A stretch of DNA of 64,000 nucleotides, taken from contig OZ253939.1 of the NCBI GenBank assembly GCA_965267245.1, positions 5,840,962 to 5,904,961 on the forward strand, given 5' to 3'. The DNA is from Cyclobacteriaceae bacterium. Its GTDB lineage: Bacteria; Bacteroidota; Bacteroidia; Cytophagales; Cyclobacteriaceae. Below the pieces are notes generated by a model, which saw only the letters and a program-made list of their open reading frames with translations, did not search any database and was not told the DNA's origin. Both the position numbers and the translations under genes were made by a program. Shown here piece by piece: positions 11,961-57,600 of the stretch (its first letter is position 1; every line of letters begins with the position of its first letter).

Positions 11961-12035
11961 GGTCCCTTCGTCTAGGGGTTAGGACGCCAGGTTTTCATCC
12001 TGGAAACAGGGGTTCGATTCCCCTAGGGACTGCCA
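11961..12035 (+). tRNA. tRNA-Glu (anticodon UUC), CCA encoded
   Basis: GGUCCCU-UC-GUCU-AGGGGUUA-GGAC-G-CCAGG-UUUUCAU-CCUGG-AAAC-AGGGG-UUCGAUU-CCCCU-AGGGACU-G-CCA. The layout matches E. coli tRNA-Glu. The acceptor stem has a G1-U72 wobble, and its last 5 nt lie inside the att core. Confidence 0.9.
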
Positions 12036-14383: not shown

Positions 14384-15058
14384 TTATGTGTGGTTCTTTG
14401 ATTTGCATATTCCCTTGTGAGCGTTTAGGCTTTTCATGGAATGAAATACCTCCTGGCAATGAGGGCATGTATGCTGGTGTACTAGTTGCTCAATCTTCTT
14501 ATACTTCTGCTCAAGGCTGGTCAAGTTATGCTTAAGACTGCTCAACTCATGCTTTTTGGTGCTTATCGCTTGCTCAATGTTGGTCAATAGCTGCTCCCCT
14601 TTGGTGATTCGATGTAGTTCTTTAAATAAGTGTGCAAAGCCATAATCCATAGAGGAAAGCATGATGCAACAAAACCACCGAAATTGAGTGTCCTGGATAC
14701 TCTTACCTTCCCAGGGCTTCCAAAAGAAGTAATTTATTATGAACGCAAAAAGAACAAGTAATAATTTCGACCAGTGAATCTCTTTACCTTTTATGTTAAT
14801 TGGAGCCATTTTACTGCTATTTACCATAAATATCAGTGTGGTGCTTACGGCTACAATTGCGATTAATACTGAAGCCAGATATCTACTGTTTGCATTTTTA
14901 ATCATAGTTAATGATTCTGCAAAAAGACTCTGTACTTCGTAGTATCTATATCCCATAAAAGCAAAAAACACTGGTAGCAGAAAGGCCAGACTAACTAAAA
15001 AGTCTGATATTCTTTCTGCTATTTTGTCCAATGAAAATTCGTCTATCTTTAATTTCAC
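14384..15058 (-). CDS. Multi-pass membrane protein with C-terminal coiled coil and a C2HC zinc-finger-like motif
   Basis: About 4 hydrophobic helices, then a coiled coil, then CPHCQEVFHSMKSLNAHKGIC. The stop overlaps the start of... actually its start overlaps the stop of the upstream GH108 gene by 4 nt, a holin-like position. Confidence 0.55.
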   Translation of the reverse strand: MKLKIDEFSLDKIAERISDFLVSLAFLLPVFFAFMGYRYYEVQSLFAESLTMIKNANSRYLASVLIAIVAVSTTLIFMVNSSKMAPINIKGKEIHWSKLLLVLFAFIINYFFWKPWEGKSIQDTQFRWFCCIMLSSMDYGFAHLFKELHRITKGEQLLTNIEQAISTKKHELSSLKHNLTSLEQKYKKIEQLVHQHTCPHCQEVFHSMKSLNAHKGICKSKNHT

Positions 15059-15570
15059 CTGTTGTGTGAGATTTGGACACGATCAAACCAACCGATATAC
15101 TTTTCAAAAACTTCTTTTTTCTCCATTAGGGATATATAATGGTATCCCTGAAGAATGTTCATTACCTTAAGAAGAAGCTTTTTTAATTTACAGGCATTGT
15201 ACGCATTAAGTGTTATAGTGCCTATTGAGCCATCAACTGTAATGTTGTCATAATCTATTTGATTCTTGTTACAGAGATTCAGAGCTTGCTGGAATATCTC
15301 TGAACCCTTTCTAATTCCAACATTTACAGAAGTGTCAAATAATTCTATTGCAATATCTTCCTCCAGATCCTCGCAAAATAGTTTAGTCCAAAAATCCCTG
15401 TGATAAATACTTTGTGCATCAGCAAGGGTGATATTTTTGATGTCAATTTTAGGGTAGGATCTTTTACTTATTCCAAACTTTGTTTCCCCTCCTGGATCAT
15501 CTGGATCATTCACATAGCCACCTTCATGGCCGATTGTTAGCTTAAATGCTTTTTTGAATTTTTCAGTCAT
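15055..15570 (-). CDS. GH108-family muramidase (endolysin-type) with PG_binding_3-like C-terminal part
   Basis: GHEGGYVNDPDDPGGETKFGIS is the GH108 catalytic signature. Confidence 0.85.
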   Translation of the reverse strand: MTEKFKKAFKLTIGHEGGYVNDPDDPGGETKFGISKRSYPKIDIKNITLADAQSIYHRDFWTKLFCEDLEEDIAIELFDTSVNVGIRKGSEIFQQALNLCNKNQIDYDNITVDGSIGTITLNAYNACKLKKLLLKVMNILQGYHYISLMEKKEVFEKYIGWFDRVQISHNR

Positions 15571-15605: not shown

Positions 15606-15971
15606 CTATTTCTGGTAAGTGCCAACTACATCACGTTTGATTCGATCAATTTGCCTTTGTCTTAGCCATCCCAAAGCTTCTTCAAGCTTAGTTATGACTA
15701 GAGATCCCTCTCTGCTTGGAACAAGTGAGTTTTTGTACTTCAAATCATGGATCATCATCGCTAATAGATGTTCATGAAGGGTGCCTCTTTTCTTTTCCAC
15801 TTCTTCTTTACCCAGTTTGGATCCACGGACAAATCTGATTTCTACTGGACGTGGTACCATGTGGATTCGAGTCAAAGCCAAACCTTGTCCATCAATTATT
15901 TCATACTCGGGAAGTCGGTACCTGGTACCTTCCTCAATTACTTCGAATTCTTCTTTAAGATCTAATATCAT
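15606..15971 (-). CDS. Hypothetical phage protein
   Basis: 121-aa ORF with normal composition. The C-terminal LEEALGWLRQRQIDRIKRDVVGT looks like a conserved helical motif, but I cannot name the family. Confidence 0.55.
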   Translation of the reverse strand: MILDLKEEFEVIEEGTRYRLPEYEIIDGQGLALTRIHMVPRPVEIRFVRGSKLGKEEVEKKRGTLHEHLLAMMIHDLKYKNSLVPSREGSLVITKLEEALGWLRQRQIDRIKRDVVGTYQK

Positions 15972-22613: not shown

Positions 22614-22755
22614 GTTTCATTCATTTAGTGGTTTGTAAATTTTCTAAGCTAAAAGCGCAATTAACGTGCCTAAAAAGGCATGGTGTGTGGTTTTTCTAAG
22701 ATTCCCCGTACCCTTTAGGTACGGGGAAAATTTCCAATTTTAACCAACCTAAACT

Positions 22756-23070
22756 TTAGATCTTCTCTAACTGGAATCCCTCCGCTTCCAGTTTTGACTG
22801 TAATTCTTCTATTAACTGTCCTTTCCATTTAGAGTAGGAGGGAGTATGCACGTAAACAATGTAAATGCCCTTATGCTCAGTGCGCACACGCACCACTTGA
22901 TTGTTTTTATAGAAATGAAACAAGGTAGTATTGCCCATGTGGTACGTGGATGCATTCGTAATTCCTTCCATAGTAGTAATTTGTGAATGAGAAAGGGTAG
23001 GGGGATGGTGAGTCCCCCTGTGAGATAGAGAGTGGTGCCGCTCCTGTCCCCCAATTAGTGTGTGGTACAT
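22756..23070 (-). CDS. Hypothetical protein (true start may be the Met at 22971)
   Basis: The His-rich first 33 codons overlap a copy of the start-associated motif. From MEGITNAS onward the composition looks protein-like. Confidence 0.4.
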   Translation of the reverse strand: MYHTLIGGQERHHSLSHRGTHHPPTLSHSQITTMEGITNASTYHMGNTTLFHFYKNNQVVRVRTEHKGIYIVYVHTPSYSKWKGQLIEELQSKLEAEGFQLEKI

Positions 23071-23113
23071 AATCTTTTAGGTTTTAGTTAAAAAAAGTTT
23101 TACAAAAACGAAA

Positions 23114-23383
23114 TCAGCCAGCTTTGATTTTCTGTAACTCACTTTCCTGTAGGTTCAGAAGCTTGCTAAAATCTCTGTTGTAAGCTATTCCTTGCTTGAT
23201 TCCTTCGTTGAGTTCCAGACTTAAGTCCTTCAATAATTGCCCAAGTCTGGCCATTACTACCTTATCATGTTTTGCTAGGTCCTGCATTTCCTGGCTAATA
23301 GATGCAATAAGATTCGCATGCTTGAACATTTTATTGGTGTGATTCTCTACCAACTGATTTAGCCTGGTCCTGGGATCGTTCAT
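23114..23383 (-). CDS. Hypothetical helical protein
   Basis: 89-aa ORF with ATGA overlap to the cro-like gene. Confidence 0.5.
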   Translation of the reverse strand: MNDPRTRLNQLVENHTNKMFKHANLIASISQEMQDLAKHDKVVMARLGQLLKDLSLELNEGIKQGIAYNRDFSKLLNLQESELQKIKAG

Positions 23384-23607
23384 GATTGTGGTACTTTTAC
23401 CAAATCATCTATACTACAGCCAAACGCATCTGCAAACACTTGAAGAATATTAGCCTTAACCTGAGACAGTTCATCTATTTCCTTACTCAGGTATAAGTAG
23501 AAGCTACTTTTACTAAGCCCTGTTTTATTAGGGAAATCTACCAACTTCAGTTGATTCCTTTGCTCTTTACCAAGCTGCTCATACCGTTCTAATAAAGGTG
23601 GTTTCAT
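23380..23607 (-). CDS. XRE-family HTH protein (Cro-like, lytic side of the switch)
   Basis: TGLSKSSFYLYLSKEI...FADAFGCSIDDLV is an HTH_3-like pattern. It is divergent from the CI-like gene. Confidence 0.7.
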   Translation of the reverse strand: MKPPLLERYEQLGKEQRNQLKLVDFPNKTGLSKSSFYLYLSKEIDELSQVKANILQVFADAFGCSIDDLVKVPQS

Positions 23608-23787
23608 TCAAGTGTGTGGTTTTGACTTTCGATTAAAAATTTGGTGTTTGAAAAAGGAAAACCGCCTCATGACTCAGGCTGGCATCTAAGGAAATATTTC
23701 CACCGGAAATCCAAACAATTCCAGGGAGGTTCTGATATATAAGAACTTTAGCCATGATATTTTAATTTTCTTGTGTTCACTGAAAAT

Positions 23788-23823
23788 TCCAATTATATTG
23801 GACTAAATTCCAGTGATATTGGA
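23788..23823. promoter_or_regulatory. Two operator palindromes in the immunity intergenic region
   Basis: TCCAATtatATTGGA (23788-23802, perfect) and TCCAGTgatATTGGA (23809-23823), 21 bp centre to centre, between the divergent HTH genes. Confidence 0.55.
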
Positions 23824-23897
23824 CAATTATCGTAACTGATAATTATAAAAACAAATTATTATAAAAACAAATTATTAGAGAAATAAATTTTTTCTAG

Positions 23898-24308
23898 TTG
23901 GAGAATTATATCCATTTATTAAGCCAGTCAATAAGGGAAAAAAGACAGGCAAAAGGGCTAACTAAAACAGAATTAGGACTACAGCTGGGGTATACGGCAA
24001 GTAGTATTGTTACTGAGTGGGAGAAAGGAAATAAGGTACCTACGACTGATGCGTTAGTAAAAATGTCAAATTTATTCGGGTGTTCTGTGGATGAGCTAAT
24101 ATTTGGCTCCCAAAGTCGATACGTAGAAGCCGACAGAGATGAGATTGATGAGTGGAAGAATAAGTATTTAAAATCTCTAGAGGAACTCAATGAACTTCAG
24201 AAGAAGCACACCAAGCTAGTAGAAGACATGAAAGAATCGCTGAAAATCCGTGATAAGGAAAAGAGTGGTTTGCTAGAGGATCTTAGGAAATTTGTAAAGG
24301 GTAAATAA
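23898..24308 (+). CDS. XRE-family HTH repressor (CI-like) with a C-terminal coiled coil
   Basis: KGLTKTELGLQLGYTASSIVTEWEKGNKVPTTDALVKMSNLFGCSVDELI is a classic HTH_3 pattern. The start is TTG at 23898, with no in-frame ATG before the HTH. Confidence 0.72.
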   Translation: MENYIHLLSQSIREKRQAKGLTKTELGLQLGYTASSIVTEWEKGNKVPTTDALVKMSNLFGCSVDELIFGSQSRYVEADRDEIDEWKNKYLKSLEELNELQKKHTKLVEDMKESLKIRDKEKSGLLEDLRKFVKGK

Positions 24309-24590
24309 ATGAGCAACCCTTCAGTCATCTACAACACTACTACCAAGGAGCTAGGAGATGAGCTTATCAAAATTTACAAGTCTGGAAACTATCAGGAATT
24401 TTTGGACAAGGTGAACTCCTTAAACGATTACACCTTATTTGACCTGGCCAACAGATATGCATATGATCAATATGGAATAAATCCCACTGGCCGTATGCAA
24501 AAAGAAACTGAGAGTTTCACCCTTTGGAATAATTTAAACCAGGTTATTAGAGAACTTCAAAAATCAGACAAGGGCAATTATTTGTTATAA
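24309..24590 (+). CDS. Hypothetical protein co-transcribed with the repressor
   Basis: 93-aa ORF starting in TAAATG right at the repressor stop. Confidence 0.5.
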   Translation: MSNPSVIYNTTTKELGDELIKIYKSGNYQEFLDKVNSLNDYTLFDLANRYAYDQYGINPTGRMQKETESFTLWNNLNQVIRELQKSDKGNYLL

Positions 24591-24644
24591 CCCAGTGCTA
24601 TTGCAATTGCCTCTATTAGGAGAGGTAGTTCACGCAATTTTAAT

Positions 24645-25055
24645 TTATGTTGCAAAATCTGGCAGCTTAACACCCTGAGCAAGAATAGTTTTTTTTACAT
24701 GCTGCTTATACCTAGTTAAACTTTCATTGAATTTAAGCATTGCAAAATATTCAAATCCATTCCTGTCTTTCGCAAATCCCTGATATCTGCAATCACTGCT
24801 ATTGCGATATAATATCTCAAATCCTTTATAAATTTTGGATTTTTTACCATGATTCTGTTCCAGGAATTCAAACACAGCCGTGTGAGATTCATCTATTGAC
24901 TTGCCATGAACTTGAAGAGCGTACCCTCTTATTAAGTGCGTTGCAGCATAAAAAACCACCGTACATTTCCAGTCATTATAAATTTTAGGGAATTTATCTT
25001 CTAATAGGGATAAGAAGTCTTCGTTATGCGCACATTGGTTAAGATGCTTGCTCAT
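24645..25055 (-). CDS. HEPN-like protein (candidate toxin/effector)
   Basis: 136 aa, all-helical in appearance. FYAATHLIRGYALQVHG contains an Rx6H string in a HEPN-like context. This is a by-eye call only. Confidence 0.4.
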   Translation of the reverse strand: MSKHLNQCAHNEDFLSLLEDKFPKIYNDWKCTVVFYAATHLIRGYALQVHGKSIDESHTAVFEFLEQNHGKKSKIYKGFEILYRNSSDCRYQGFAKDRNGFEYFAMLKFNESLTRYKQHVKKTILAQGVKLPDFAT

Positions 25056-25572
25056 CCTTGGTAAGGTTTACTAAATTGTAATCGTTCACCAAACCAATTG
25101 CGTCTTCCTCTATGTAGTGGAATATAATTGGATGAGTTTGAGCAATACTGTATACTTCATATTGCTCTAACAAATCATAAAATCTATCACGTGTCTCCAG
25201 GGAATCATCCTTCAAAACAAAAAATACGTGAGTAGCATTGCCATCCTTTGAGTATGCCATTTGCGTCAATAATTCTCGCTTCTTTCTCCCAAAAGTTTCA
25301 ATTAGTTGAAATTTAAGGCTATCGATAGATTTGTTAATACTTTCATTTGTACTAGAAACCGTTTTTATAGGGTTACTAACAGATTCCTTCAAAAACTTAG
25401 TGAAGTCGTGTTCAGCACCAACATCTTGAAGGCTCAAGGCATCATTGACATCATTAGTCAATTCCTGCAATAGACCATCTAATGCCATTAGCAAACCAGT
25501 AATTTGTAAGTCACTAGGGCTATCTTTAGATATGATATCTTGAGATTTGTTGACGTTTTTTACACTTGACAT
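25039..25572 (-). CDS. Hypothetical protein, upstream partner of the HEPN-like gene
   Basis: 177-aa ORF that overlaps the downstream gene by 17 nt. No clear motif. Confidence 0.5.
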   Translation of the reverse strand: MSSVKNVNKSQDIISKDSPSDLQITGLLMALDGLLQELTNDVNDALSLQDVGAEHDFTKFLKESVSNPIKTVSSTNESINKSIDSLKFQLIETFGRKKRELLTQMAYSKDGNATHVFFVLKDDSLETRDRFYDLLEQYEVYSIAQTHPIIFHYIEEDAIGLVNDYNLVNLTKDEQAS

Positions 25573-25699
25573 TTTGAAAAACGGGTTATACTAGGCAAAA
25601 AGTGATTGTTTCGGATCGATTATACTTACTAAAACAACATTAAAGTCAATTTAGTTTATGATAAAAGTACTAACTAAGTAAAGTTACTTCCAAACATTT

Positions 25700-25714
25700 T
25701 CCAATGAAATTGGA
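25700..25714. promoter_or_regulatory. Operator palindrome upstream of the 25572-24645 operon
   Basis: TCCAATgaaATTGGA is a perfect palindrome with the same half-sites as the immunity operators. It lies 128 nt upstream of the ATG at 25572. Confidence 0.45.
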
Positions 25715-25775
25715 CTTTTCGTAAGTGAACGGGAATCATATAAAATTGTTGTGAATGCGGTCATCCTACGTAATT

Positions 25776-26063
25776 CTACTTTAGTTTCTGAAGTAAATGA
25801 TTTATTGTTGTCTTTGAATATCCTGATGAAACAAGTCGCTCTTCAAATTCATTAATACACCCACAAATAGCAGACTTCTGTTTTGTTTGAAGCAATGAAT
25901 CAGGATAATTAACCTCTTGAATAACCCCTTCAAAACGTGATTCCCATTGCGGATCATATTCTAATCTCAATTTTATAACTTTCCCAATTAAGGCCTTTTC
26001 ATCATGAGTGAAAACAATCAGTTTGGGCATATTTCTAATTTTGAGGCCGGTACTATTTTCCAA
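25776..26063 (-). CDS. Hypothetical protein (start possibly the Met at 26030)
   Basis: 95-aa ORF, last gene of the lipopeptide/TPR operon. Confidence 0.5.
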   Translation of the reverse strand: MENSTGLKIRNMPKLIVFTHDEKALIGKVIKLRLEYDPQWESRFEGVIQEVNYPDSLLQTKQKSAICGCINEFEERLVSSGYSKTTINHLLQKLK

Positions 26064-26242
26064 AAAGCTTTGTCATTATTCCTGGACCATGAAGGCCTTT
26101 TGTGTTTTGTAGATAAGACGTATTTCTCCTCAAATTCCGGGCAATAGCTACGTGCAGGAACAATAACCACCCAACCGGTCAAAGTTTTCCCAGACATCTC
26201 ATCATACCAGGTACATTTTGTTTCTAATGGAATTTTATTCAT
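26018..26242 (-). CDS. Hypothetical small protein
   Basis: 74-aa ORF that overlaps the TPR gene stop by 8 nt. Confidence 0.5.
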   Translation of the reverse strand: MNKIPLETKCTWYDEMSGKTLTGWVVIVPARSYCPEFEEKYVLSTKHKRPSWSRNNDKAFWKIVPASKLEICPN

Positions 26243-27449
26243 TCTGTTTCAATGATCTAATCATTCTATTTCTCACCCGTACAAATCTGATAATTGATCT
26301 AAATAGAAGGTACAATATAATTAATAACCCAATACCTACTCCTAGAAGGACAATATTCTGGTTTTCAATGATGTCATTCAGTTGATGAGTTTCCTGCTCC
26401 TGTTTGTAAACCAGAGCAATGTTAGCAGCTTGCGCCATAAACAGTAGTTCACGGGAAGTATTAGCAAAGGCCTCAAGTTCAGATTCGTACTTTTCTATGT
26501 AGGCAGTTCTGTTAATATCATCATTTAATGCATGATAGTTACGGTGCATCAGCTTATAAAGATCTAATGTATGGTTATCCTTATCCACGTGATCAAAAAG
26601 ATCTTTTGCGTTGCTGTATGCAATAGCCGCTTCCTCGTACTTACCTAAATGATGGAGGCATGTGCCCAGATCCTTATAGGAAATAAATTTTTCAGTACCT
26701 GTTTTTATTTCCAGCGCTTTATTGAGGTTTTCTACAGCTTTCTCATAGTCTTCTTCCATCATGTAGCTATGAGCGATATTGTGCCATGCTTTTCCTGCGT
26801 ATTTCTCATATTTAGGGACACTAGTCTGATTGATAATTTCAAAAAAGTACTCTTCTCTAGCCTCTGCATAGAGGCCAGTTTCTACAAGTATAAAGCCTAG
26901 TTTATTGTAAATTTTAGCTTGTCTGGTAAGTTGCTCTTCATCCTTTGCCAGGGCTAGTGCTTCAAAAAAGATTTTGGAGGCTTTCTCAAGTTGTTCCATG
27001 GCTTTATAGTTATTGCCAATGTTATATAATAGTCCTGGTTTATCTTCATCTACAACATACTGAAGCGCATTATTGTAAAAAGTCTCTGCCAGGTCATAAT
27101 TGTTATGAATTTTGAAAATCCTTCCTAAGCACCAGTACAAACGTGACCTTGCCTGATCATAATAGCTGCCCTCCGGGATAAGTTCGAGCGCTTTAAAATA
27201 GTGCTTTACCGATAATTGATAATTTCGTTTAGTGTTGTAAGCATCAGCAATGAGGAAATGACTAAAATAGGCATTATGATTATCCGAATACTCTTTCAGG
27301 GAGCTTTCAGCATAGAAAATTGCGGAATCAGGAGAATTAAAATGCTGTTTAGCTATTTCGTTGCTCGGACTATTAATAGAGTAATTCTCATTGACAGTGG
27401 AGCAGGCATGGAAAAGAATAACAGTTAATATGAACAGAAAGTAGCGCAT
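26235..27449 (-). CDS. TPR-repeat lipoprotein with a C-terminal TM anchor and a short basic tail
   Basis: Signal plus lipobox MRYFLFILTVILFHAC, multiple TPR units (A..Y...AL), then IVLLGVGIGLLIILYLLF and RSIIRFVRVRNRMIRSLKQNE. It is a paralogue of 58014-59246. Confidence 0.8.
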   Translation of the reverse strand: MRYFLFILTVILFHACSTVNENYSINSPSNEIAKQHFNSPDSAIFYAESSLKEYSDNHNAYFSHFLIADAYNTKRNYQLSVKHYFKALELIPEGSYYDQARSRLYWCLGRIFKIHNNYDLAETFYNNALQYVVDEDKPGLLYNIGNNYKAMEQLEKASKIFFEALALAKDEEQLTRQAKIYNKLGFILVETGLYAEAREEYFFEIINQTSVPKYEKYAGKAWHNIAHSYMMEEDYEKAVENLNKALEIKTGTEKFISYKDLGTCLHHLGKYEEAAIAYSNAKDLFDHVDKDNHTLDLYKLMHRNYHALNDDINRTAYIEKYESELEAFANTSRELLFMAQAANIALVYKQEQETHQLNDIIENQNIVLLGVGIGLLIILYLLFRSIIRFVRVRNRMIRSLKQNE

Positions 27450-27508
27450 GATAAATTGACTTTAAGCGTAATTAGGTGTATTCAATAATAACTAAAAAAA
27501 CCGTGCCA

Positions 27509-27540
27509 TAAAAAAAAATCAGCCTATTAAGTGACTGATT
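27509..27540 (-). terminator. Candidate attenuator/terminator between the lipopeptide gene and the TPR gene
   Basis: On the minus strand AATCAG-tcacttaatagg-CTGATT is followed by TTTTTTTT. Confidence 0.45.
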
Positions 27541-27574
27541 TTCAAATTGATATTAGCAAATGATAATAAAATGA

Positions 27575-27736
27575 TCAATTACAGCAAGGTTTTGGATGTT
27601 CATCATCGTCATCTTCTGAGGCCGGAGTCTCTAGTTGATAGTCTGCTTCTATTTCATCCATAGGATCAGACGTGGAACATGATCCCAGGCTAAATACGAA
27701 CAATGCAACGGTGGAAATTAAGAATAGCTTTTTCAT
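27575..27736 (-). CDS. Small acidic lipoprotein (53 aa) ending in PCCN
   Basis: Below the ORF-track cutoff. Hand translation gives MKKLFLISTVALFVFSLGSCSTSDPMDEIEADYQLETPASEDDDDEHPKPCCN. It is a paralogue of 59374-59541. Confidence 0.6.
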   Translation of the reverse strand: MKKLFLISTVALFVFSLGSCSTSDPMDEIEADYQLETPASEDDDDEHPKPCCN

Positions 27737-27780
27737 GAGTATAAAAATTTAAAAGTTTTGAAAATATTTAATTACTTTAG

Positions 27781-27795
27781 TCCAATAAGATTGGA
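27781..27795. promoter_or_regulatory. Operator palindrome upstream of the lipopeptide/TPR operon
   Basis: TCCAATaagATTGGA is a perfect palindrome 45 nt upstream of the ATG at 27736. Confidence 0.45.
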
Positions 27796-27886
27796 AAAAA
27801 GAAACTTAAGAATACGCCGTTGGATTCATTCATTCATGTTCCAATTGGTGTGTGGTTGGCTTTCGGGTGGTGCCGAAAGCCTTTTT

Positions 27887-28012
27887 TTATGCTTTTAGCT
27901 GCTTTTTCTTCTTATTGTACTCGTACAATTGAATACCCATGTAAACAGAGGTGAGTACTGCTGCGGTAGCAGAAGCGTATAGTGCCGCTTTTTGAAGTTT
28001 TTTATCGTCCAT
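27887..28012 (-). CDS. Possible 41-aa single-TM protein
   Basis: Hand translation gives MDDKKLQKAALYASATAAVLTSVYMGIQLYEYNKKKKQLKA. It is followed by the hairpin GGCTTTCGG/CCGAAAGCC. Confidence 0.3.
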   Translation of the reverse strand: MDDKKLQKAALYASATAAVLTSVYMGIQLYEYNKKKKQLKA

Positions 28013-28030
28013 AATCTACAAATTTTTTTG

Positions 28031-29293
28031 TTAATATGCTCCCCTATTCCACGCACCGGTTAAGGATCTTATCTCACCTGATGCGTTTAGTAATAGTCTT
28101 GAATCGTAATCTTTTAAATTTAATCCAGTTGCCAGGGCAACCGAGCTTGCTCCCAGTGTTAAATCATCATTTGCATAGTCTGTAAAATCAAGGCTACTTA
28201 ACCCAGAAGCTCCCTCAACGAATGTATTATTTTGACTATCCGGAGTTAAACCAGCGTCACTATCAATCTGGCTGCTAAATGTGGTAGTAGCATGCAATAT
28301 GTTGTTGTAGTATTTAACTTTTAGTCTTTCACTTGCTTCAGCTGAAATACCAACATTTGCTATGTCAGTAAATGTATTGTTGAACAATTCAATATTGCAA
28401 TTTGCCCTATTGATTGCATCTATTATGAAAACGCCGTTTATTGGATTAATTACTGTGTTGTTAAAACATCTGATGTCATCACCTGACAAAACAATACCAC
28501 CTCCCTGATCCGTGGCTCCTGAATCTTTGATGAAGTTATTCCAGATATACCCTTTTGATCCTACTCCAATTTGTAATCCACTACTTTGGCCACCACCATT
28601 ATCTCTACCATAGTTTTCAATATTATTGTTGTATACCAAAACTCTATCTTGAAATCCGTTAACCTGGATCCCTTCTCGGTCCGTATCGAAAACAACATTA
28701 TTTGCACATACCGCCTGTCTTAGCCAGTTCCATGCGTACCAAACTACACCGGATTCATAATAAACATGACCGTTGGAAGCTCCCTGATAAATAGCCTCAG
28801 TTCCACATCCGTGAACTCGACAACCCATTACTACACTATATGGATCATATCCAAAAGCGGTATTCCCTCTGGCTTGAGATAAATTATATGTTTGAAAACC
28901 TGTTCGTATCCCTGTATCTCCTACATCTCGCACCTCTACATTGAACACTCGAATGCCATAACAATTAACTGTGGTGTTTATGCCTTGAGTTAGTCCATTG
29001 TGAAGATCTGCGGCTAAACTGCGTGGATTTGAAAGATCGCCGATTATGTCAATGTAGCTGCAATTAGATAAAGACAGAATTGGACTAGCAGCGGCTCCAC
29101 CATTACTCTCCACATTGTTTAAATCAATGATGATAGGGTTAGCAGCTGTTCCATGATATCCTAAAATGCCTTTTACACTATGAATACCCGATTCATAGCG
29201 AATGATGTCTCCAGGTTGAACGTTTCCCAGGTCATTGATTCCAAGTTCTCCGTCGTGATATGTATCTGATGTAAGTGTTGTGAAAACAGCCAT
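28031..29293 (-). CDS. Right-handed parallel beta-helix protein (pectate-lyase-like; candidate polysaccharide depolymerase/spike)
   Basis: Periodic NN.I.N / FNNT repeats (VYNNNIENYG, IWNNFIKDSG, CFNNTVINP, LFNNTFTDI, YYNNILHAT) are typical of beta-helix repeats. Confidence 0.75.
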   Translation of the reverse strand: MAVFTTLTSDTYHDGELGINDLGNVQPGDIIRYESGIHSVKGILGYHGTAANPIIIDLNNVESNGGAAASPILSLSNCSYIDIIGDLSNPRSLAADLHNGLTQGINTTVNCYGIRVFNVEVRDVGDTGIRTGFQTYNLSQARGNTAFGYDPYSVVMGCRVHGCGTEAIYQGASNGHVYYESGVVWYAWNWLRQAVCANNVVFDTDREGIQVNGFQDRVLVYNNNIENYGRDNGGGQSSGLQIGVGSKGYIWNNFIKDSGATDQGGGIVLSGDDIRCFNNTVINPINGVFIIDAINRANCNIELFNNTFTDIANVGISAEASERLKVKYYNNILHATTTFSSQIDSDAGLTPDSQNNTFVEGASGLSSLDFTDYANDDLTLGASSVALATGLNLKDYDSRLLLNASGEIRSLTGAWNRGAY

Positions 29294-29309: not shown

Positions 29310-31331
29310 TTAAGTTGGGACTATTTCTATTTTCAACCAGCTTAATGCATAGTATGCAGGAGTGCCTACGGCAGCCTCACTAAAATCTAATTGTATTAAT
29401 CCGCTTCCGTCAACAGCCACATCTGCCAACAAAATGTTTTGATCCGGATCGCTCAAATCTGCGCCACCCATATCGTTCCAGGAACATGACCATTGATCCG
29501 TTTGCACACCATCCGTTACTTCTCCTCTACATTGATCTTCATTGGTGGCAGATCGATACCCACCACCTTTTATGTTGAATATCTTACTTGCCCAATCCGT
29601 GTAACCAGACACATCTATAATGATAGTTTCAGGATTTACAGAATAAAAACAGTCTCTAGTTGCTGCTGCTGGAATTGTAGTTACTCCATCGGTAATACTA
29701 CCGTTATATCCCTGACTTGTACTGTCATATGTTCCGTCCCATGCGGTATCTATCTCCATGTCAATTCCAGTTCCACTGCCATCACTGAATGCAGCTAAGT
29801 CACTGATTACTGTCCCGGGACTGTTATCAAGGTTGTCTATATTATTCCAGTTTCCGGATGCATGAGAATACTGTGATCCGAAATCGATAAATATTTCTTC
29901 TTCAGGATCGTTTTGAGTTGATAAACCATCTCCTGAAGCAATGTTACTTGTATAGTTACCTGCAGCGTGAACGAAATGCGCATATTTAGTTTGTCCAGGA
30001 GAGAGAAGACCTGTGAAATTAAATGTAATAGTTCCTGAAGCTGAAATTTCGGTACTATCAGCTAATGAGCCTACTGAAGTACCTGTTTCATCTTCCCCAT
30101 TCATGATTTCAGTTTCGTCAGGAGCAGTAATTGAATCCGTCAATACAACATATACCGTCCCAATGTCCTGGTTGATATCAACACTTGCAATTGCTGAATC
30201 ACCGCCTGATGCGGTATCAATAGGATTACTTAATGTAGCGGCAGTACTGTAATTGACAATGATATCAAAATACACATCCTCATAACCTGAGTGTGTACTA
30301 AATCCAACAGCTCTAATTACAAAAGTATCTCGTCCCTCAGTAGATGGAGAGCCATTTGCTGTCAAAACTCCGGTAGATGAATTAAGGCTCAACCAACTTG
30401 GAAGCCCCCAGCTTGAGAATTCTACATTTGAACCGGGACTATTGGTAAAACTTGGAGTCAATGTGGTAGCGGCCGTACTCACTTCGAATACCTGGTCGCT
30501 GTTACTATAGGTAAATCCTTCAATTGGTATAGCATTGAGTTCCAATACCACTCCATCACCATCCAGATCCGTAAAGGCAGCATCTGAAGCGCTCGTTCTT
30601 AATCCATTTAGAAATCCGGTAATACTTATCCTGGCATCTTCATTTACAGTATGTGCAGCACTAAAATCTATTAACAGTTGATCTACTTCGGAATCAGACA
30701 ATCCTGTATTGTGAAATGTGTAGAAGAAATCACCGGAGATGGTTTGGTAATCTTGGTCAGTAACACTACAATTACCTCCATCCAGGTAAAACAAGTCAAA
30801 GCTGTGATTGGAAAATAAGACACCCAGATCACCTGTAAGAGCAGTGTTTCCTACTTGTTCACCAAGATTTAACTCTACAAGGCTGCTTATATTGATAGAT
30901 GAAATAGCCCCTGAAATAATACCACCAAGGTTAAAGAAGCTTTGGAGGCTTTGAAAGTTGTTGATATTAGATGTGCTAATAGTAAGATCCGGAGAGAAGT
31001 CATCCTCTTTAGTAACTGATATGATGATACCGGTCAACCCTGAATGGTTCCCAATGGCAATAGCCGCATCTTCATTATCAAAAGTCTGACTGACTTTAGT
31101 AGGAGTTGCTGATAATGCTACCTGTTCAGTATCTAAACTTTTCCATTGAACAGTTTTGGTCCCTGAGCCAGTAAGCCACATTTCGATTGTTCCCGAGAAG
31201 CCGGAAGCTGTGGCCAGGTTCTGTAAAACAACTTCTGCTGAAATTTCCTCTGTTATGTACTTTGATACATTTGCCAGGTCTACACCATCCAGCTTTGCAA
31301 TGTTATCGGTATTTACGGTAGTTACTTTCAT
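29310..31331 (-). CDS. Fibre/receptor-binding-like protein with an Ig-like (He_PIG-type) domain
   Basis: 673 aa, Ser/Thr/Gly/Asp-rich. GLPSWLSLNSSTGVLTANGSPSTEGRDTFVIRAVG matches the putative Ig-domain pattern. ATGA-coupled to the upstream gene. Confidence 0.55.
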   Translation of the reverse strand: MKVTTVNTDNIAKLDGVDLANVSKYITEEISAEVVLQNLATASGFSGTIEMWLTGSGTKTVQWKSLDTEQVALSATPTKVSQTFDNEDAAIAIGNHSGLTGIIISVTKEDDFSPDLTISTSNINNFQSLQSFFNLGGIISGAISSINISSLVELNLGEQVGNTALTGDLGVLFSNHSFDLFYLDGGNCSVTDQDYQTISGDFFYTFHNTGLSDSEVDQLLIDFSAAHTVNEDARISITGFLNGLRTSASDAAFTDLDGDGVVLELNAIPIEGFTYSNSDQVFEVSTAATTLTPSFTNSPGSNVEFSSWGLPSWLSLNSSTGVLTANGSPSTEGRDTFVIRAVGFSTHSGYEDVYFDIIVNYSTAATLSNPIDTASGGDSAIASVDINQDIGTVYVVLTDSITAPDETEIMNGEDETGTSVGSLADSTEISASGTITFNFTGLLSPGQTKYAHFVHAAGNYTSNIASGDGLSTQNDPEEEIFIDFGSQYSHASGNWNNIDNLDNSPGTVISDLAAFSDGSGTGIDMEIDTAWDGTYDSTSQGYNGSITDGVTTIPAAATRDCFYSVNPETIIIDVSGYTDWASKIFNIKGGGYRSATNEDQCRGEVTDGVQTDQWSCSWNDMGGADLSDPDQNILLADVAVDGSGLIQLDFSEAAVGTPAYYALSWLKIEIVPT

Positions 31332-33532
31332 GCTGCTTCAACTTCTACCTCTGGTTTTGGCCATGTGTAAGTACCCGATCCGTAACGTCCAGTATTGCTG
31401 GCCACAAAGTTTTCGACATTCACAATTGAGTCAACAATGTGTGTCCAGGTTTGCTCACCTCTGAAGTCTCCGGCTTTGGTACTCTCCATTACCAGTATGA
31501 ATCCAATATTTGGGTATTGGTGCATAAAGGATTCCATTTCACTGGCTCTTATTCTGAAGTTGTTTATCAGATCGATGAAAACAAATTTGAATTTACCAGT
31601 ATCCAGGGCTTTTCTCAGTTCATTTAAGCTTCGGAAAGCGTCAAAGAACATACCAGGGTTACCATCCACCTTCATGTCTTTAATTAGCTTTTTGGTGGCC
31701 TGACCTATTCCCTGGTCCGCCAACACATAAAGCACATCACCAAACCCACTTATATAGTCGGCAAACTGAAAGCTGAATGAGGTTTTACCGTTTTTTGGTT
31801 TTCCATAAATGATCAATTTTAAATTGGTACCAGGATCTTGCATGAACTCACCCCATACACCATTAAAGGGCAATGTTTCAAAGTTTGTGTTCATGATATC
31901 GTCAGCGGTTTTGAACCCCATTGATGAATTTGTTTCTGCTTGAGAATCAGTTTCGTCTTGAGTGATTGAGTCGAGAAAGCCCCACCTTTCATTACTTTCT
32001 TCCTCTATGCCATTAAGTGTAGAGGTTTTTTTTGTAGGGGCTTTTTTAGGCCGTTTTACCGTTGGTCTGTCCTTCTTCTTTTTAGAATTTGCAAGCGATC
32101 TTTTGAGATATTTAGGTACTCCTTTGCTATCTGGTTGCAGAATAAAGTCTGCTGCTTCCTGAGCTTTACTGCTCGCTCTAAAAAAGAATTTATTATCCTT
32201 TTTCATGATGGCAAGTAGATTACTTTTCCAATGTTCCAGATATGCAGCACTGTTATTGATTGTATGATAGAGTATTCCGCTCTCACCACAAAGGAAAGTT
32301 GCCCCAAGCTCCGCTATCAATTCTTCAAAGGCATAATTTTTAGTTTTCATTCCTCCTGGCTTAAGACGGTCTAACCGTTTTTTATGTCCAGTACTGTGTA
32401 TGTACTCATGAAAAAGTGTACAGTAGTATTTTGGCAAACTTTCAAAAGATTCAGGCACAGGCATATTGACCTCATCCAATCCAGGTATATAGAATGCTTC
32501 AGGTTTTTTATGAGAAAATTTTGGTTTCGGAGTAGGGTAGGAGCGAATAATATTTTCAGCGGCCTCTATCTTTTCAGTCTGTTTCTTCTTCGGTTTCTTT
32601 TTAAGTTTAAAATCGATACCCTCAATATCCTCACCATTAAAAACCTTGTAGTAGCGCAATACCGGAAACTCGTCAAGGTTTTCGCACACATTAATTCCGT
32701 TTTCTGTTACCGGACCTTTAGCACATTGTGCAAAATACTTGAAGTACTGTTTGTCAGTTATTCTTTTTCCATCGAGTTTATAAATCATCTGAAAGTATGT
32801 GACGAAATAGCCTTTGGCACCTTCCTTCACTTTTCCTCCTTTTTGCTTCACCTGGTTGAATGTAAGAAAGTAGGGATTGTCCCACTCTTTTTGTCGCTGA
32901 AAAGGAATTAGAAAGTTTAACAGAAATGAGTTTATACCTCTATAAGGTTTTTTGCTTGCGAAATTTGTGGCTGGTAACCCATAGGATTCCATAGATTTCC
33001 ATGGTTTTCGCCAAACAAGATCTTTACTGTTCTCAATCATGTCTGTTACCATATCTGTAATGATTTGGTAAACATCATCATTAGCGACAGCCCCTAAAGT
33101 GTTCATGGCTGTTTCTTCACAATAGCATTCTATCCCATCAAGTGTTGTTACTCGATTTTTATAAGCAGTTTTACCATCTCGTGATATCTTAAATCCGGAA
33201 GATATAAATGTCTTCTTCTGACTAGTGTTGAGTTTTCTGGAGAATTGAATAGAGGCTTTGTTTGGTGTTATGCTTAGTTTTTTGAACGGGTCTGCAATTG
33301 CTTTATTTATGCATTTTTTAGTTTTAACGCTCAGCTTGATCTTAGCCTGTCCAATCTTATTTTTCCTCATGGCAGAAATAGTCTTATTCAGTTGATCCAA
33401 AACAACCTGATGACAATAACTTTTGACTGGATCTAAAGCGACAAGATTAGACTTTATGCTCTCAATACTGCCAATTTGAACGGTTTTACCATCCAGATTC
33501 CTAATTGTTCTATAGAGTCTATTTTCATCCAT
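31328..33532 (-). CDS. ArdC-like fusion protein: ssDNA-binding N-domain, zincin metalloprotease domain and C-terminal RecA/KaiC-like P-loop ATPase
   Basis: WRKPW...KKPYRGINSFLL...YFLTFNQVKQKGGKVKEG (DUF1738/ArdC-N), HEYIHSTGH...FEELIAELGATFLC (ArdC metalloprotease), a basic linker, Walker A GKPKNGKTS and Walker B FVFIDL. Confidence 0.78.
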   Translation of the reverse strand: MDENRLYRTIRNLDGKTVQIGSIESIKSNLVALDPVKSYCHQVVLDQLNKTISAMRKNKIGQAKIKLSVKTKKCINKAIADPFKKLSITPNKASIQFSRKLNTSQKKTFISSGFKISRDGKTAYKNRVTTLDGIECYCEETAMNTLGAVANDDVYQIITDMVTDMIENSKDLVWRKPWKSMESYGLPATNFASKKPYRGINSFLLNFLIPFQRQKEWDNPYFLTFNQVKQKGGKVKEGAKGYFVTYFQMIYKLDGKRITDKQYFKYFAQCAKGPVTENGINVCENLDEFPVLRYYKVFNGEDIEGIDFKLKKKPKKKQTEKIEAAENIIRSYPTPKPKFSHKKPEAFYIPGLDEVNMPVPESFESLPKYYCTLFHEYIHSTGHKKRLDRLKPGGMKTKNYAFEELIAELGATFLCGESGILYHTINNSAAYLEHWKSNLLAIMKKDNKFFFRASSKAQEAADFILQPDSKGVPKYLKRSLANSKKKKDRPTVKRPKKAPTKKTSTLNGIEEESNERWGFLDSITQDETDSQAETNSSMGFKTADDIMNTNFETLPFNGVWGEFMQDPGTNLKLIIYGKPKNGKTSFSFQFADYISGFGDVLYVLADQGIGQATKKLIKDMKVDGNPGMFFDAFRSLNELRKALDTGKFKFVFIDLINNFRIRASEMESFMHQYPNIGFILVMESTKAGDFRGEQTWTHIVDSIVNVENFVASNTGRYGSGTYTWPKPEVEVEAA

Positions 33533-34166: not shown

Positions 34167-34634
34167 TTATGTTTTTAGTGATTCATTCTTACTCGTTCCA
34201 TAATAATAGCTGAATAGACTAGTCACAACCACTCCTTCAACCATTCCAATCAAATGGATGAATATCTCTCTTTCTGCTACCTCAGGAATCCAAATAATAG
34301 CATAGACAATCACTCCATAACTAGCCAGGCCGACCAAACCAGTTAGAACCATCATCCAATCTATCTTTCGGATTTTACTTACTTCTACCTCTCTCCACCT
34401 GGCATTTTTCTTATCGTCTACTTCCAAAGCCATCACTTCCAATTCATATTCATGGACAAGCTTTAAAGATTCAGCTTTTTGTTCCGGAGTAAGATCCGGA
34501 TCATCTGAAATTAACTTGGTTAAGATCTTTACGGGAGGGAAAAAGTCATCCACTACGTCTACTATAGCAGGTGCTGCACCTACTAAAAATTTACCAATTT
34601 TGGTGTCCTTAAATTTTTTTTTGTCCTTTTTCAT
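34167..34634 (-). CDS. Membrane protein (holin-like position directly downstream of the muramidase gene)
   Basis: Two C-terminal hydrophobic helices (MMVLTGLVGLASYGVIVYAIIWI, LIGMVEGVVVTSLFSYYY). ATGA overlap with the GH108 gene. Confidence 0.5.
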   Translation of the reverse strand: MKKDKKKFKDTKIGKFLVGAAPAIVDVVDDFFPPVKILTKLISDDPDLTPEQKAESLKLVHEYELEVMALEVDDKKNARWREVEVSKIRKIDWMMVLTGLVGLASYGVIVYAIIWIPEVAEREIFIHLIGMVEGVVVTSLFSYYYGTSKNESLKT

Positions 34635-35287
34635 GCTGCATTTAAATAATCCAAGACCTGTTTTCTTGCCTTTTTGTTAAATGAAATATATAAACCAGCT
34701 GCCCCCACAAGTGAAAGGCCAACGAGAGCATAATTTGTACCTTTCAAGTCTGGGAATTGATTTGTTCTCCTCAACCAACCAGGTAGGTACTTACTGTGTA
34801 CAATTCCCCTTCTCACACGGTCCAGATGATAGTTAATGCGAGCTTGTTTGTATCGCATATATAGCTTTACTGGATTTACTTTATTAATTGCTGCGATAGT
34901 TTGTGACCCAATGTGATTATCTACCGAAACTCGTTGACCTAATGTATTTACAACCTCCTGAATTGTGGCAACTGCTTTTGCTGCCAGTATGAAGAAATCA
35001 AAGTAAATGTTAGCAACATTCTGGTTGTTGATTTCACCGGCACGGCTTTTTATCCATCTCTGCCTGTAGAACTCTTTCACGAAGGGTTCCATGCCAGGAA
35101 TTTGCTGGTTGTTACTCAATGGGCCCTTTACATATTTATAATTATCAACATGAGGCCATCCGCTCCAATTCGGATGAATGGCTCTTGCGACTCCTGCATA
35201 GGTTTCCCCACCAAGATCATCAGGGTCATTGGCATAGTAGCCCTCGTGCTTTCTTACAATTCGATATGCTGGATCAAAATTGCTCAC
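34631..35287 (-). CDS. GH108-family muramidase with a C-terminal TM anchor
   Basis: KHEGYYANDPDDLGGETYAGV is the GH108 signature. The C-terminal YALVGLSLVGAAGLYISF is a TM helix. Confidence 0.85.
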   Translation of the reverse strand: MSNFDPAYRIVRKHEGYYANDPDDLGGETYAGVARAIHPNWSGWPHVDNYKYVKGPLSNNQQIPGMEPFVKEFYRQRWIKSRAGEINNQNVANIYFDFFILAAKAVATIQEVVNTLGQRVSVDNHIGSQTIAAINKVNPVKLYMRYKQARINYHLDRVRRGIVHSKYLPGWLRRTNQFPDLKGTNYALVGLSLVGAAGLYISFNKKARKQVLDYLNAA

Positions 35288-39681: not shown

Positions 39682-39748
39682 TTTGTTCTAAATTTTTCGT
39701 TTTGAGAAATAATTTTTTGGTGTTTTTTATTGATGTGTGGTTTGGCTT

Positions 39749-43200: not shown

Positions 43201-43290
43201 GTTTCCAGTGTTAATTTCTCTCGCACCAGAAGCAACTACACCGAGACCATTCATATAGGTTATTGGATATCGTGATAATACTCTGGTCAT
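40249..43290 (-). CDS. 1013-aa protein: N-terminal transglutaminase-like cysteine protease core, four Tyr/Lys-rich repeats of about 50 aa, and a C-terminal TM anchor
   Basis: GIDCDDMAFLTGAILYNFGIPFSIRKI...YSHVYIVV...YYVIDPV gives a Cys-His-Asp triad pattern. The repeats end in AGQPKL or AGKPHL. The TM helix is IMAGIGVVAVGGLIYAV, followed by a Pro-rich basic tail. Confidence 0.7.
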   Translation of the reverse strand: MTRVLSRYPITYMNGLGVVASGAREINTGNQFDSYYPSRKPKETTITLGTSYDTLNLMVEKIQQDHKEAAKIAKKLYSANREIFARNIFNHIYNNFQYKQDPKNREQVKGVSASYALRKSGIDCDDMAFLTGAILYNFGIPFSIRKISKSATGDYSHVYIVVPKSDGANLSTRDNYYVIDPVLDKFDFEYPKNNLPKYYDEVIVNPKNITAMNGITCDCGTMQGITEYALDTKNGWVELRANIINGVEQVPNGESPEDFISKVDLLIESWDDPDKREYVIALLIVDEEFGSLGLGGDGIFKKVFNGVKKVAGKVAQGVKKVFPATLLAREGIKVWFRVLGKKKAAAIWPGRYSQQQAQNAKIDLNDWKKRKDSYDKVEKIFKTIGGDPKKFAEAVSDGAKKVIGDKSWFIDFKYVMNPPSSSKSNVPKVKSTDQIRNVSYNTSRGSASSIKRNDPKQQQYLAQYKKYKDLADKYRGNGRLRSQFIAAVNAANKYAALAGQPKLSTTTSSNTSPIPTRTIFNPGNSGSKDPAEIAKMKAKAAQKVDPNALKLYTRYKASAKTYEIKGNKTLANRYVEYANRYAEKAGQPKLPLITTVTDPRSLTKGPRTTSSTTSSSTVSSRDREAALKSYNNYKSRYITYKNAKSYTAANRYASLANQYADRAGQPKLDANLKSVIGATSRPIVTGGRPPQTTSSKKPTPSKKTSSYVRPTTSKTSSINIPIASRARTALRGIEEAEYLVGMGEPATAAAATAAAAPFIVKIVDLLKGLSENPIVNGIVQNIGNDKEDTKNNLVKAVGNKLSDLTKDKPLLNKAVNKITSSVTKKTSSSSSSASSLALSRYNSYKQKYDMYKAKNDAIRANTYANYANKYADQAGKPHLTKLSVTVPAPPVVKENITREVMNNTLPTPPQKAIPAATNSDIQDAKVLQPEVISSQSVKQLEIGGLTQKELIMAGIGVVAVGGLIYAVSSKKGSTQPVYHQPAPVRPNPSPAPMNGPKRKKTKSKKSKNTTIVI

Positions 43291-43763: not shown

Positions 43764-43912
43764 ACTGAATACCTTGAATCAATTAATTCAATGATACGTG
43801 ATCAGTATATATGAAAATTTAGAAACTTTCTGTTACTAATTATATTTGACAATATTTATCAGTATTCTTTAGTTTTAGATTGCTTTTTAAACCACACACT
43901 AAAGCGTACACC

Positions 43913-45773: not shown

Positions 45774-45783
45774 TGGTGTGTGG

Positions 45784-47023: not shown

Positions 47024-47047
47024 TCTTTAGTTTTTTGTGGTGTGTGG

Positions 47048-51365: not shown

Positions 51366-51501
51366 CTAAATTATCTCATTCAAAATCCTCAAAAAAATGG
51401 TGTGTGGTGGTTTAAATAAGGTTTCTTATGAGTAATTGAAGAGATCTTCTTCCTTTTCTAATTTGATAAAATCTTCAATATAAATGGGGTTCGATTTGTG
51501 G

Positions 51502-53271: not shown

Positions 53272-53287
53272 TTTAAAAAAAAAAGAA

Positions 53288-53593: not shown

Positions 53594-53613
53594 ATTTATG
53601 TTTTTTGTTGTAA

Positions 53614-57476: not shown

Positions 57477-57508
57477 CTTTTAATGTTGTATATAAATTTG
57501 TGTAAACA

Positions 57509-57566: not shown

Positions 57567-57600
57567 TATTATTGTAGTTGATTAATTGAACGGTAAGGAA

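Follow-up and report, generated by a model that had tools for sequence, protein, structure and literature searches.

The DNA considered here is a stretch of 64,000 nucleotides (nt) from a Cyclobacteriaceae bacterium (contig OZ253939.1 of assembly GCA_965267245.1), hereafter called the window, which harbours two copies of a cassette made of two genes, i.e., a small acidic lipoprotein gene and, downstream of it, a gene for a protein with tetratricopeptide repeats (TPR) and a C-terminal transmembrane (TM) helix. One copy lies in each of two mobile elements, namely elements 1 and 2. The two pairs of the window are designated W1 and W2, and the loci of relatives outside the window L001 to L014. The four genes are located as follows, with ORF for open reading frame and aa for amino acids:

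27575 to 27736, minus strand: small prolipoprotein gene of pair 1 (53 aa, lipobox LGSC, mature peptide of 34 aa with a net charge of -11, ending in PKPCCN)
26235 to 27449, minus strand: TPR-TM protein of pair 1 (404 aa), beginning 125 nt past the stop of the small ORF
59374 to 59541, minus strand: small prolipoprotein gene of pair 2 (55 aa, lipobox FASC, ending in PQPCCN)
58014 to 59246, minus strand: TPR-TM protein of pair 2 (410 aa from the Met at 59246, lipobox LYGC), 127 nt downstream of its small ORF

The translation of the first small ORF splits into signal and mature part as MKKLFLISTVALFVFSLGSC/STSDPMDEIEADYQLETPASEDDDDEHPKPCCN. When the six frames of the window were scanned for peptides ending in CC plus at most three residues before the stop, a single second peptide of the ...PCCN type was returned, that of 59541-59374. 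Identity between the two pairs amounts to 37% for the TPR proteins (E 3e-59) and to 42% for the peptides. A preliminary description of this DNA had reported both pairs, with their spacing, their DEIE and PxPCCN features and a hairpin followed by a T-run, all of which are indeed present; it had also called the small ORF unannotated, whereas both peptides already figure in the NCBI/ENA protein sets (P0002 and P0001).

Relatives of the TPR proteins were sought by word-indexed searches and those of the peptides by an exhaustive HMMER search of 1.84 billion representatives with a profile built on the two peptides, which returned eight further peptides. With 14 relatives, the mini-ORF proves to be a real and conserved lipoprotein gene, where the preliminary description had still allowed for a lack of conservation elsewhere. 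Its pairing with the TPR-TM gene is tight, the latter lying about 75-150 nt downstream of the small ORF, or overlapping it, in 10 of the 11 informative loci, and TPR genes of this family did not turn out to occur commonly on their own. The order acidic lipoprotein then TPR-TM gene is found in W1, W2, L002, L003, L004, L005, L006, L010, L011 and L014. Among the TPR relatives with upstream DNA available (L002, L003, L004, L005 and L006), a small lipoprotein gene precedes every one; conversely, the HMMER-found peptides on long enough contigs (L010, L011, L012 and L014) are followed by a TPR-family gene 75-150 nt downstream. In the two chromosomal TPR histidine kinases that were examined, no small-lipoprotein neighbour was present. 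The TPR family itself is rare, as only a handful of relatives emerged from the word-indexed searches and the matches of the TPR profile fall to E 1e-36 or worse past the seed members and the window's own protein; its size is about 10-15 members among billions of proteins, with a patchy distribution.

Judged on its sequence, the small ORF qualifies as a substrate of signal peptidase II, i.e., a bacterial lipoprotein, the features sought being a basic n-region, a hydrophobic h-region and a lipobox of the form [LVI][ASTVI][GAS]C. By inspection, a lipobox is present in 14 of 14 peptides (LGSC, FASC, LAGC, TSC, SSC, TGC, ASC, TAC, YAC, VSC and similar). The mature part spans 33-52 residues with a net charge of -9 to -14 in all 14, the upper bound being set by L005 (52 residues) and the length being elsewhere roughly 33-40. 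An acidic run, typically of the DDDD kind, occurs in all of them, a [DE]E[IVM][ED] motif in nearly all and a Pro-rich tail in most, and the 14 homologues retain frame, lipobox Cys and acidic motifs at 30-50% identity. Comparison of W1 with L003 gives a pN/pS of 0.42 for the mature part and 0.86 for the signal peptide, a pattern indicative of purifying selection on the former and of a signal peptide almost free to vary. The mature peptide is probably disordered and lipid-anchored. No Pfam match was obtained for the peptides, the NCBIfam matches (PG1828 lipoprotein and LsoB) cover the signal peptide only and lie below cutoff, and no internal processing motif is evident.

The PxPCCN ending, which the preliminary description had put forward as a key feature, is private to this genome. 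The closest relative, L003 (TPR protein 50% identical), ends in ...HPRPGGN against ...HPKPCCN in the window copy, and most relatives end in a Pro-rich tail followed by GG(N); the remaining tails read GGGTGGN, PGQPGQN, PPGSSGS, KPGGNS, PNNGG, PPQTGG, TSTGGN, TPSGG and TQSGG, and the C-terminal tail is absent altogether from the distant L005/L006 subfamily. As such, CCN was rejected as a conserved motif, CC being restricted to the two window copies, themselves only 42% identical. A recent gene conversion of the two CCN tails finds no support since both the codons (TGC TGT versus TGT TGT) and the flanks differ. A disulfide between the CC of the peptide and the TPR protein was likewise discarded, as TPR2 has no Cys beyond its lipobox Cys.

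In the TPR1 protein, Pfam recognises TPR repeats only (TPR_1 5e-22, TPR_12 5e-19), and no output domain appears in the family, where Pfam and NCBIfam together detect nothing but TPR repeats. The AlphaFold2 model of TPR1 (mean pLDDT 84.8) displays 15 helices over residues 28-307 forming a TPR superhelix, followed by one continuous helix at residues 311-402, inside which the TM segment lies at about 365-383, and then by a basic tail. In Foldseek comparisons of this model, the top PDB matches were consensus TPR proteins and the peptide-binding TPR of LGN/Pins, while Rap proteins came only at ranks 42 and 48. The TPR domain of LGN/Pins holds extended peptides in its inner groove. The model thus portrays TPR1 as a superhelix of the peptide-binding type set on a helical stalk and a TM helix.

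As regards topology, the extracytoplasmic location proposed in the preliminary description for the TPR domain is borne out by the N-terminal signal and, according to the positive-inside rule, by the basic residues past the TM segment. The double membrane anchor proposed alongside it stands in part: the C-terminal TM helix is confirmed, but the so-called lipobox of the TPR proteins (FHAC, LYGC), whose Cys is Cys16 in TPR1, is non-canonical and this Cys is retained in 8 of 10 members only. Because the TPR proteins of L011 and L014 carry an ordinary signal peptide with no Cys, the double anchor appears common but not obligatory. The cytoplasmic tail amounts to 20-38 aa across the family and is poorly conserved.

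The nearest outside relatives are the TPR domains of Bacteroidota membrane sensors, namely histidine kinases, cyclases, SpoIIE and GGDEF proteins (E 1e-36 to 1e-9). The TPR protein also gives an NCBIfam match to FimS (E 9e-8, 30.8 bits for a cutoff of 600) and weak profile matches to the TPR lipoproteins PilW, YbgF and PorW. Like the TPR-TM proteins, the TPR sensors (FimS kinases, adenylate cyclases, SpoIIE phosphatases) have a signal, a TPR array and a TM segment in their N-terminal part, but they possess cytoplasmic output domains and, in the two kinases examined, no small-lipoprotein neighbour, whereas the TPR-TM family has no kinase domain. A specific link of descent to the TPR histidine kinases was rejected, given a generic similarity of about 25% and the lack of a lipoprotein neighbour there.

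The evidence that ties the cassette to the elements carrying it comes from DNA sites and from the helix-turn-helix (HTH) genes they accompany:

27781 to 27795, no strand assigned: operator palindrome TCCAATAAGATTGGA, its centre 52 nt upstream of the ATG of small ORF 1
23788 to 23823, no strand assigned: tandem operator pair of element 1, with a perfect copy at 23788 and a one-mismatch partner 21 bp off
25700 to 25714, no strand assigned: last of the three perfect copies of the operator, lying upstream of cargo genes at 24645-25572
23898 to 24308, plus strand: XRE-family HTH repressor-like gene of element 1 (136 aa, HTH and C-terminal coiled coil)
59548 to 59561, minus strand: operator-like site CTCAACTAAAATTA of element 2, 7-20 nt upstream of the ATG of small ORF 2
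57586 to 58017, plus strand: XRE-type HTH gene of element 2 (143 aa), its 3' end overlapping the convergent TPR 2 gene by 4 nt

The palindrome upstream of pair 1, which the preliminary description had taken for an immunity-type operator, is a genuine TCCAAT-N3-ATTGGA site that recurs in the repressor/cro region, three perfect copies being present in 64 kb against 0.00 expected, along with one near-perfect copy. The tandem operators at 23788-23823 lie in the divergent region between the XRE HTH gene and the cro-side ORFs. The layout is the same in L003, with another sequence: a perfect operator copy, TGTCTAA-N5-TTAGACA at 2920, precedes the ATG of the small ORF by 57 nt (by 67 nt when measured from the centre of the palindrome), a 21-bp-spaced operator pair adjoins the HTH gene, and this HTH protein, whose gene converges on the TPR gene, is 41% identical to that of element 1. 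In element 2, the motif CTCAACTA[CA]AATTA occurs at three sites, of which 57222-57235 and 57569-57582 flank the cro/HTH region, where the HTH gene is divergent from an 85-aa cro-like ORF at 57219-57476. In W1, W2 and L003, then, the operator of the small ORF matches the XRE repressor/cro operators of its own element, even though the operator sequences differ from one element to another. At the sequence level, this co-variation with the immunity operators over three elements constitutes strong evidence that the element's own repressor would control the cassette.

The relative orientation of these genes is also recurrent. In six of eight loci (W2, L001, L002, L004, L005 and L006), the TPR gene converges on the HTH gene with an overlap of 4-30 nt between the 3' ends, while an 80-nt gap is found instead in L003. 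In element 1, four cargo genes sit between TPR1 and the repressor gene. These four spacer genes (24645-26242, minus strand) are small and have no assigned function, and the lower two are preceded by the perfect operator at 25700-25714, which suggests that cargo may also be under repressor control.

Within the cassette, the two genes are separated by signals of their own:

27514 to 27543, minus strand: intrinsic terminator between small ORF 1 and TPR 1 (11-bp stem and T9)
59312 to 59351, minus strand: hairpin between small ORF 2 and TPR 2 (11-bp stem, then GTTTTTG)
27551 to 27568, no strand assigned: palindrome TTATCATTTGCTAATA right behind the stop codon of small ORF 1

A hairpin with a T-run follows the small ORF in 8 of the 10 loci that have an intergenic spacer, so that the mRNA of the peptide would be largely monocistronic. 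A post-stop palindrome of the TTATCA-N3-TGATAA type, with hexamers resembling those of a Fur box, is found in six loci whose immunity operators differ (W1 27551-27568, W2 59352-59369, L003 about 3168-3186, L004 about 325-342, L008 and L010); it may be the site of a conserved factor or else an RNA hairpin.

Turning to the elements themselves, the window encodes two large serine recombinases, at 11995-13569 on the minus strand and at 51502-53127, which are 35% identical. The 3' end of the first is overlapped by a tRNA-Glu gene (11961-12035, plus strand), which probably serves as attachment site and marks the left end of element 1. The content of element 1 includes an ArdC-like polyvalent protein syntenic with L003, DNA methylases, two GH108 lysozymes and a DnaG-type primase. 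Element 2 covers about 8 kb, at about 51.5-59.6 kb of the window (51502-59600), and comprises genes for the serine recombinase (integrase), DUF3987, a DnaB-N-like protein, a TIGR02594 lysozyme-like protein, the cro-like and HTH proteins, the TPR protein and the lipopeptide; its insertion adjoins the gene of the DnaG-type primase with which element 1 ends, and it is followed by a host-like ion-channel gene. No relaxase or virion genes were recognised in element 2, which could be a satellite or a mobilisable island. The pair is situated at the insertion edge, next to host genes, in W2, and abuts housekeeping genes in L011.

The preliminary description had assigned the cassette to a temperate phage. 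Among the roughly 60 ORFs scanned with Pfam and PHROGs, no capsid, portal, terminase or tail protein was recognised, the phage-like matches being limited to weak ones to a "phage cement" and to a transglutaminase-like domain. A tblastn search with TPR1 returned no relative among 50,697 phage genomes or 72,556 plasmids, and four scans of IMG/VR, two with protein patterns and two with degenerate DNA, returned none either. What the window holds is an integrative mobile element with a cI/cro-type switch, its status as a temperate phage being unproven. The sole link found to any sequenced phage is offered by a 1013-aa protein (40249-43290, minus strand): over 115 aa, its transglutaminase-like domain shares 28.7% identity with gp34 of Salisaeta icosahedral phage 1 (SSIP-1), which is tailless.

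Several further features accompany the cassettes or the elements:

27846 to 27881, minus strand: AACCACACACCA motif with a G+C-rich hairpin, downstream of a 41-aa ORF, an arrangement kept in L003
27887 to 28012, minus strand: 41-aa ORF with a single TM segment directly upstream of cassette 1, in the same place in L003 and absent from pair 2
31328 to 33532, minus strand: protein with ArdC-N, zincin (MPTase-PolyVal) and AAA_24 domains, upstream of the cassette and 56% identical to its counterpart in L003 (452-2677); in the window only, two additional genes, one for a 673-aa protein with an Ig-like domain and one for a protein of 420 aa, stand between this polyvalent gene and the cassette
15606 to 15971, minus strand: sub-threshold Pfam match to the Acb2/Tad1 hairpin domain (E 2e-4), which could be an anti-defence sponge

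The AACCACACACCA motif is found seven times in the window at no more than one mismatch against 0.29 expected, with perfect copies at 22681-22692, 27846-27857, 45774-45785 and 47038-47049, one-mismatch copies at 39731-39742, 43890-43901 and 51398-51409, and a copy in L003 at 2849-2860. The copies are nearly all on the gene strand, intergenic in element 1 and 0-110 nt upstream of start codons, that at 45774 abutting the ATG. In W1 and L003, the motif stands behind a hairpin with compensatory changes in the stem and a conserved loop, CACCAC. On the plus strand, the hairpin at 27858-27881 and its T-run have the form of a canonical terminator, so that a short plus-strand RNA bearing UGGUGUGUGGUU, antisense to all the sites, is conceivable. 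A search for known RNA families in 23000-28200 gave nothing significant, the match to Rfam rteR reaching 26 bits with an E of 0.69.

The best-supported reading of these data is that of a conserved envelope cassette coupled to the repressor switch that integrative elements of Cytophagia-type Bacteroidota carry; the family is undescribed and fits best as a variant of the envelope accessory modules of mobile elements. As to function, we tentatively favour an envelope exclusion or lytic-conversion module under repressor control, at a likelihood short of even. The prolipoprotein encoded by the first gene would give rise to a polyanionic lipid-anchored peptide that, with its own promoter and a strong terminator, would be made in excess, while the second gene would be expressed by read-through or from a second promoter, in a smaller amount. 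The product of the latter would be a TPR superhelix located in the periplasm, with about 8 repeats and of a kind suited to the binding of extended peptides, tethered on the inner membrane by a helical stalk of about 55 residues and the C-terminal TM helix and, in most members, also by an N-terminal lipid. In the resident state, the repressor would silence the cassette, as judged from the position of the operator, which in pair 1 overlaps a -33-like TTG and in pair 2 sits 7-20 nt from the ATG. Once the repressor is absent, i.e., upon entry into a new cell or upon induction, the cassette would fire, the lipopeptide might dock in the groove of the TPR protein and the complex could then change the envelope so as to stop further entry of DNA or phage; convergent transcription would help shut off the repressor gene and thereby reinforce the switch.

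Jamming of receptors by small phage lipoproteins is an established mechanism, e.g., in phage T5, where Llp is made early after entry and blocks further entry via envelope proteins in the periplasm (PMC9586334). The peptides share with Llp, with Cor of T1/phi80 and with TrbK of RP4 the condition of tiny lipoproteins of mobile elements, but those are folded and act alone on the receptor, whereas the present ones are polyanionic, probably disordered and provided with an obligate TPR-TM partner. Searches for membership in the Llp/Cor group found no Pfam, PHROGs or NCBIfam match beyond the signal peptide, no receptor-binding protein gene was identified, and the Cys residues that a disulfide of the Llp/Cor kind calls for exist only in the window copies of the peptide. 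Among the moron and immunity genes, lambda rexAB and sieB also form an accessory unit by the repressor gene, provided with a terminator of its own and situated at the element's edge; they are, however, usually co-expressed with the repressor, unlike the present cassette with its repression-like operator and its convergence on the repressor gene.

A number of observations weigh against an exclusion module. No similarity to known exclusion, defence or lysis proteins was obtained with Pfam, NCBIfam, PHROGs or PADLOC, the latter giving only generic TPR and HTH matches and no defence system. The putative binding of the peptide by the TPR protein goes with no global charge complementarity, which was dropped as evidence since the TPR domains bear a net charge of -15 to +1 across the family. 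It is only from its position that the operator is read as repressing and not as activating. Were the cassette indeed silent in the resident state, a classical superinfection exclusion of the lysogen type would be excluded, and the effect would be confined to early times or to induction. At one locus, L008, no TPR start is seen in the 278 nt that follow the peptide gene, the sole exception to the pairing. Lastly, L005 and L006 are not obviously in a mobile element, so the cassette may have a more general envelope role.

This last point leads to a second possibility, doubtful but deserving consideration, according to which the genes form a general cassette for envelope maintenance or stress with a local XRE regulator, merely picked up by mobile elements, for instance for periplasmic scaffolding as by the TPR lipoproteins NlpI, LpoA and PilW. 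In L005 (2879-4771), the cassette, of a distant subfamily, adjoins a TPR-HisKA-HATPase kinase, and in L006 (2603-5483), a SiaC-family phosphoprotein and a TPR-PD40-OmpA protein, neither context looking mobile; L001 adjoins LodA- and halogenase-like genes. The weak profile matches to PilW, YbgF and PorW and the sensor TPR domains as nearest outside relatives would suit such a role as well. Against it, the family is very rare and patchy yet present twice in one genome within two integrase-bearing insertions, the HTH protein of W2 is the sole repressor candidate of its 8-kb element, and in W1 and L003 the operator is also found at the cro-side promoter.

Rather unlikely is a form of extracytoplasmic sensing, adapted from the idea of the preliminary description, in which the lipopeptide, exposed at the surface or borne on outer membrane vesicles (OMVs) by virtue of its acidic N-terminus, would signal kin elements to the periplasmic TPR protein, the receptor then altering the activity of the repressor and so feeding back on the element's switch, e.g., through membrane sequestration by its cytoplasmic amphipathic tail. 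The adjacency of a small exported-peptide gene and a TPR protein of the peptide-binding type is in keeping with it, as are a linkage to the repressor gene that holds across 23-50% TPR identity and the operators common to cassette and switch; both divergent copies of one genome end in CCN and the others in GG(N), which could reflect a host- or strain-specific tuning. The lipoprotein export signals (LES) of Bacteroidota, in which a polar or basic residue precedes at least 2-4 acidic ones within +2 to +6, read SDDDD/SDDFE or C-X-K-(D/E)2-X (PMC5080379), and LES-dependent sorting into OMVs is reported (PMC10319031). In the present peptides, the positions +2 to +6 that follow the lipid Cys are acidic (e.g., STSDP, TPDTE, IADEE, EDASD) and resemble these signals, but the match is weak, with 1-3 D/E and no agreement with the consensus. 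Also unfavourable to sensing are a TPR protein devoid of output domain, with its short and poorly conserved tail, and a peptide that is lipid-anchored and presents no sign of being processed into a short signal.

The analogy with arbitrium and other RRNPP systems drawn in the preliminary description is not supported. In common with AimR/AimP, Rap/Phr and PrgX/cCF10, a gene for a small exported peptide adjoins a TPR gene, here in 10 of 11 informative loci, close to a switch governing lysogeny or transfer on a mobile element, and convergent transcription recalls prgQ/prgX. RRNPP receptors, however, are cytoplasmic and carry or control the output, and their peptides are processed to 5-10 residues and re-imported (PMC10075063). 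Here, the TPR protein is periplasmic and membrane-anchored with no DNA-binding or output domain, the peptide is a lipoprotein of 33-40 aa instead of a short diffusible re-imported one, and the host is a Gram-negative Bacteroidota and not a Firmicutes; the defining features of receptor location and output are thus lacking. Carried to a full peptide-receptor decision system for Gram-negative elements, in which the lipopeptide at the surface or on OMVs would be read by the periplasmic TPR protein of the own or a neighbouring cell, the latter protein then tuning the adjacent XRE repressor, the proposal becomes less probable still. Membrane sequestration or convergent transcription would then be the route, the CCN or GGN tail the strain-specific determinant of specificity, and the whole a functional analogue of arbitrium built from wholly different parts.

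Very unlikely is a lysis or release device, whether a two-component or unimolecular spanin-like system or a lipopeptide acting like those of colicin release. A lipobox and a C-terminal TM helix on the same TPR protein in 8 of 10 members, together with a small lipoprotein partner, evoke such devices, expression is probably linked to derepression, and hydrolase-like genes exist in both elements (GH108 at 15055-15570 and 34631-35287; TIGR02594 at 56776-57219). With lambda Rz/Rz1 the pair shares an inner-membrane helical periplasmic protein and a small lipoprotein, but the TM helix is C-terminal, at the opposite end, the lipoprotein gene comes first and behind its own terminator, the reverse of the Rz/Rz1 order, where the o-spanin gene lies embedded in the i-spanin gene or follows it, and the rigid TPR superhelix is unlike the coiled coils of spanins. 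The pair is located outside any lysis cassette, with no holin or endolysin cassette seen adjacent. The double anchor also recalls the u-spanin T1 gp11, a protein of beta fold from which the TPR protein differs in both size and fold, and two members of the family have no N-terminal lipid. The lack of recognised virion genes leaves lysis with no evident need.

That the small ORF would be a chance ORF, or a mere RNA or regulatory leader of the TPR gene, as its very short length and the high nucleotide conservation between W1 and L003 around the 3' end and the terminator might suggest, is effectively refuted by the conservation of frame, lipobox Cys and acidic motifs among the 14 homologues, by the pN/pS of the mature part and by the independent calling of the gene by public pipelines. 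The probability left beyond these readings belongs to functions outside the list.

In mobile elements of Bacteroidota, the modules for lysogeny and immunity have been poorly characterised and, to our knowledge, no envelope exclusion device has been described for elements of the Cytophagia type. Though the very rare and narrowly distributed family sets limits to its importance, the cassette is a compact unit of repressor, three operators, lipopeptide and TPR anchor, whose wiring is backed by the co-variation of operators in three elements. If an exclusion device, it would represent a new protein family for exclusion, and one requiring a TPR partner; if it serves instead for peptide sensing, the peptide communication of phages would have in it a first extracytoplasmic counterpart among Gram-negative bacteria.

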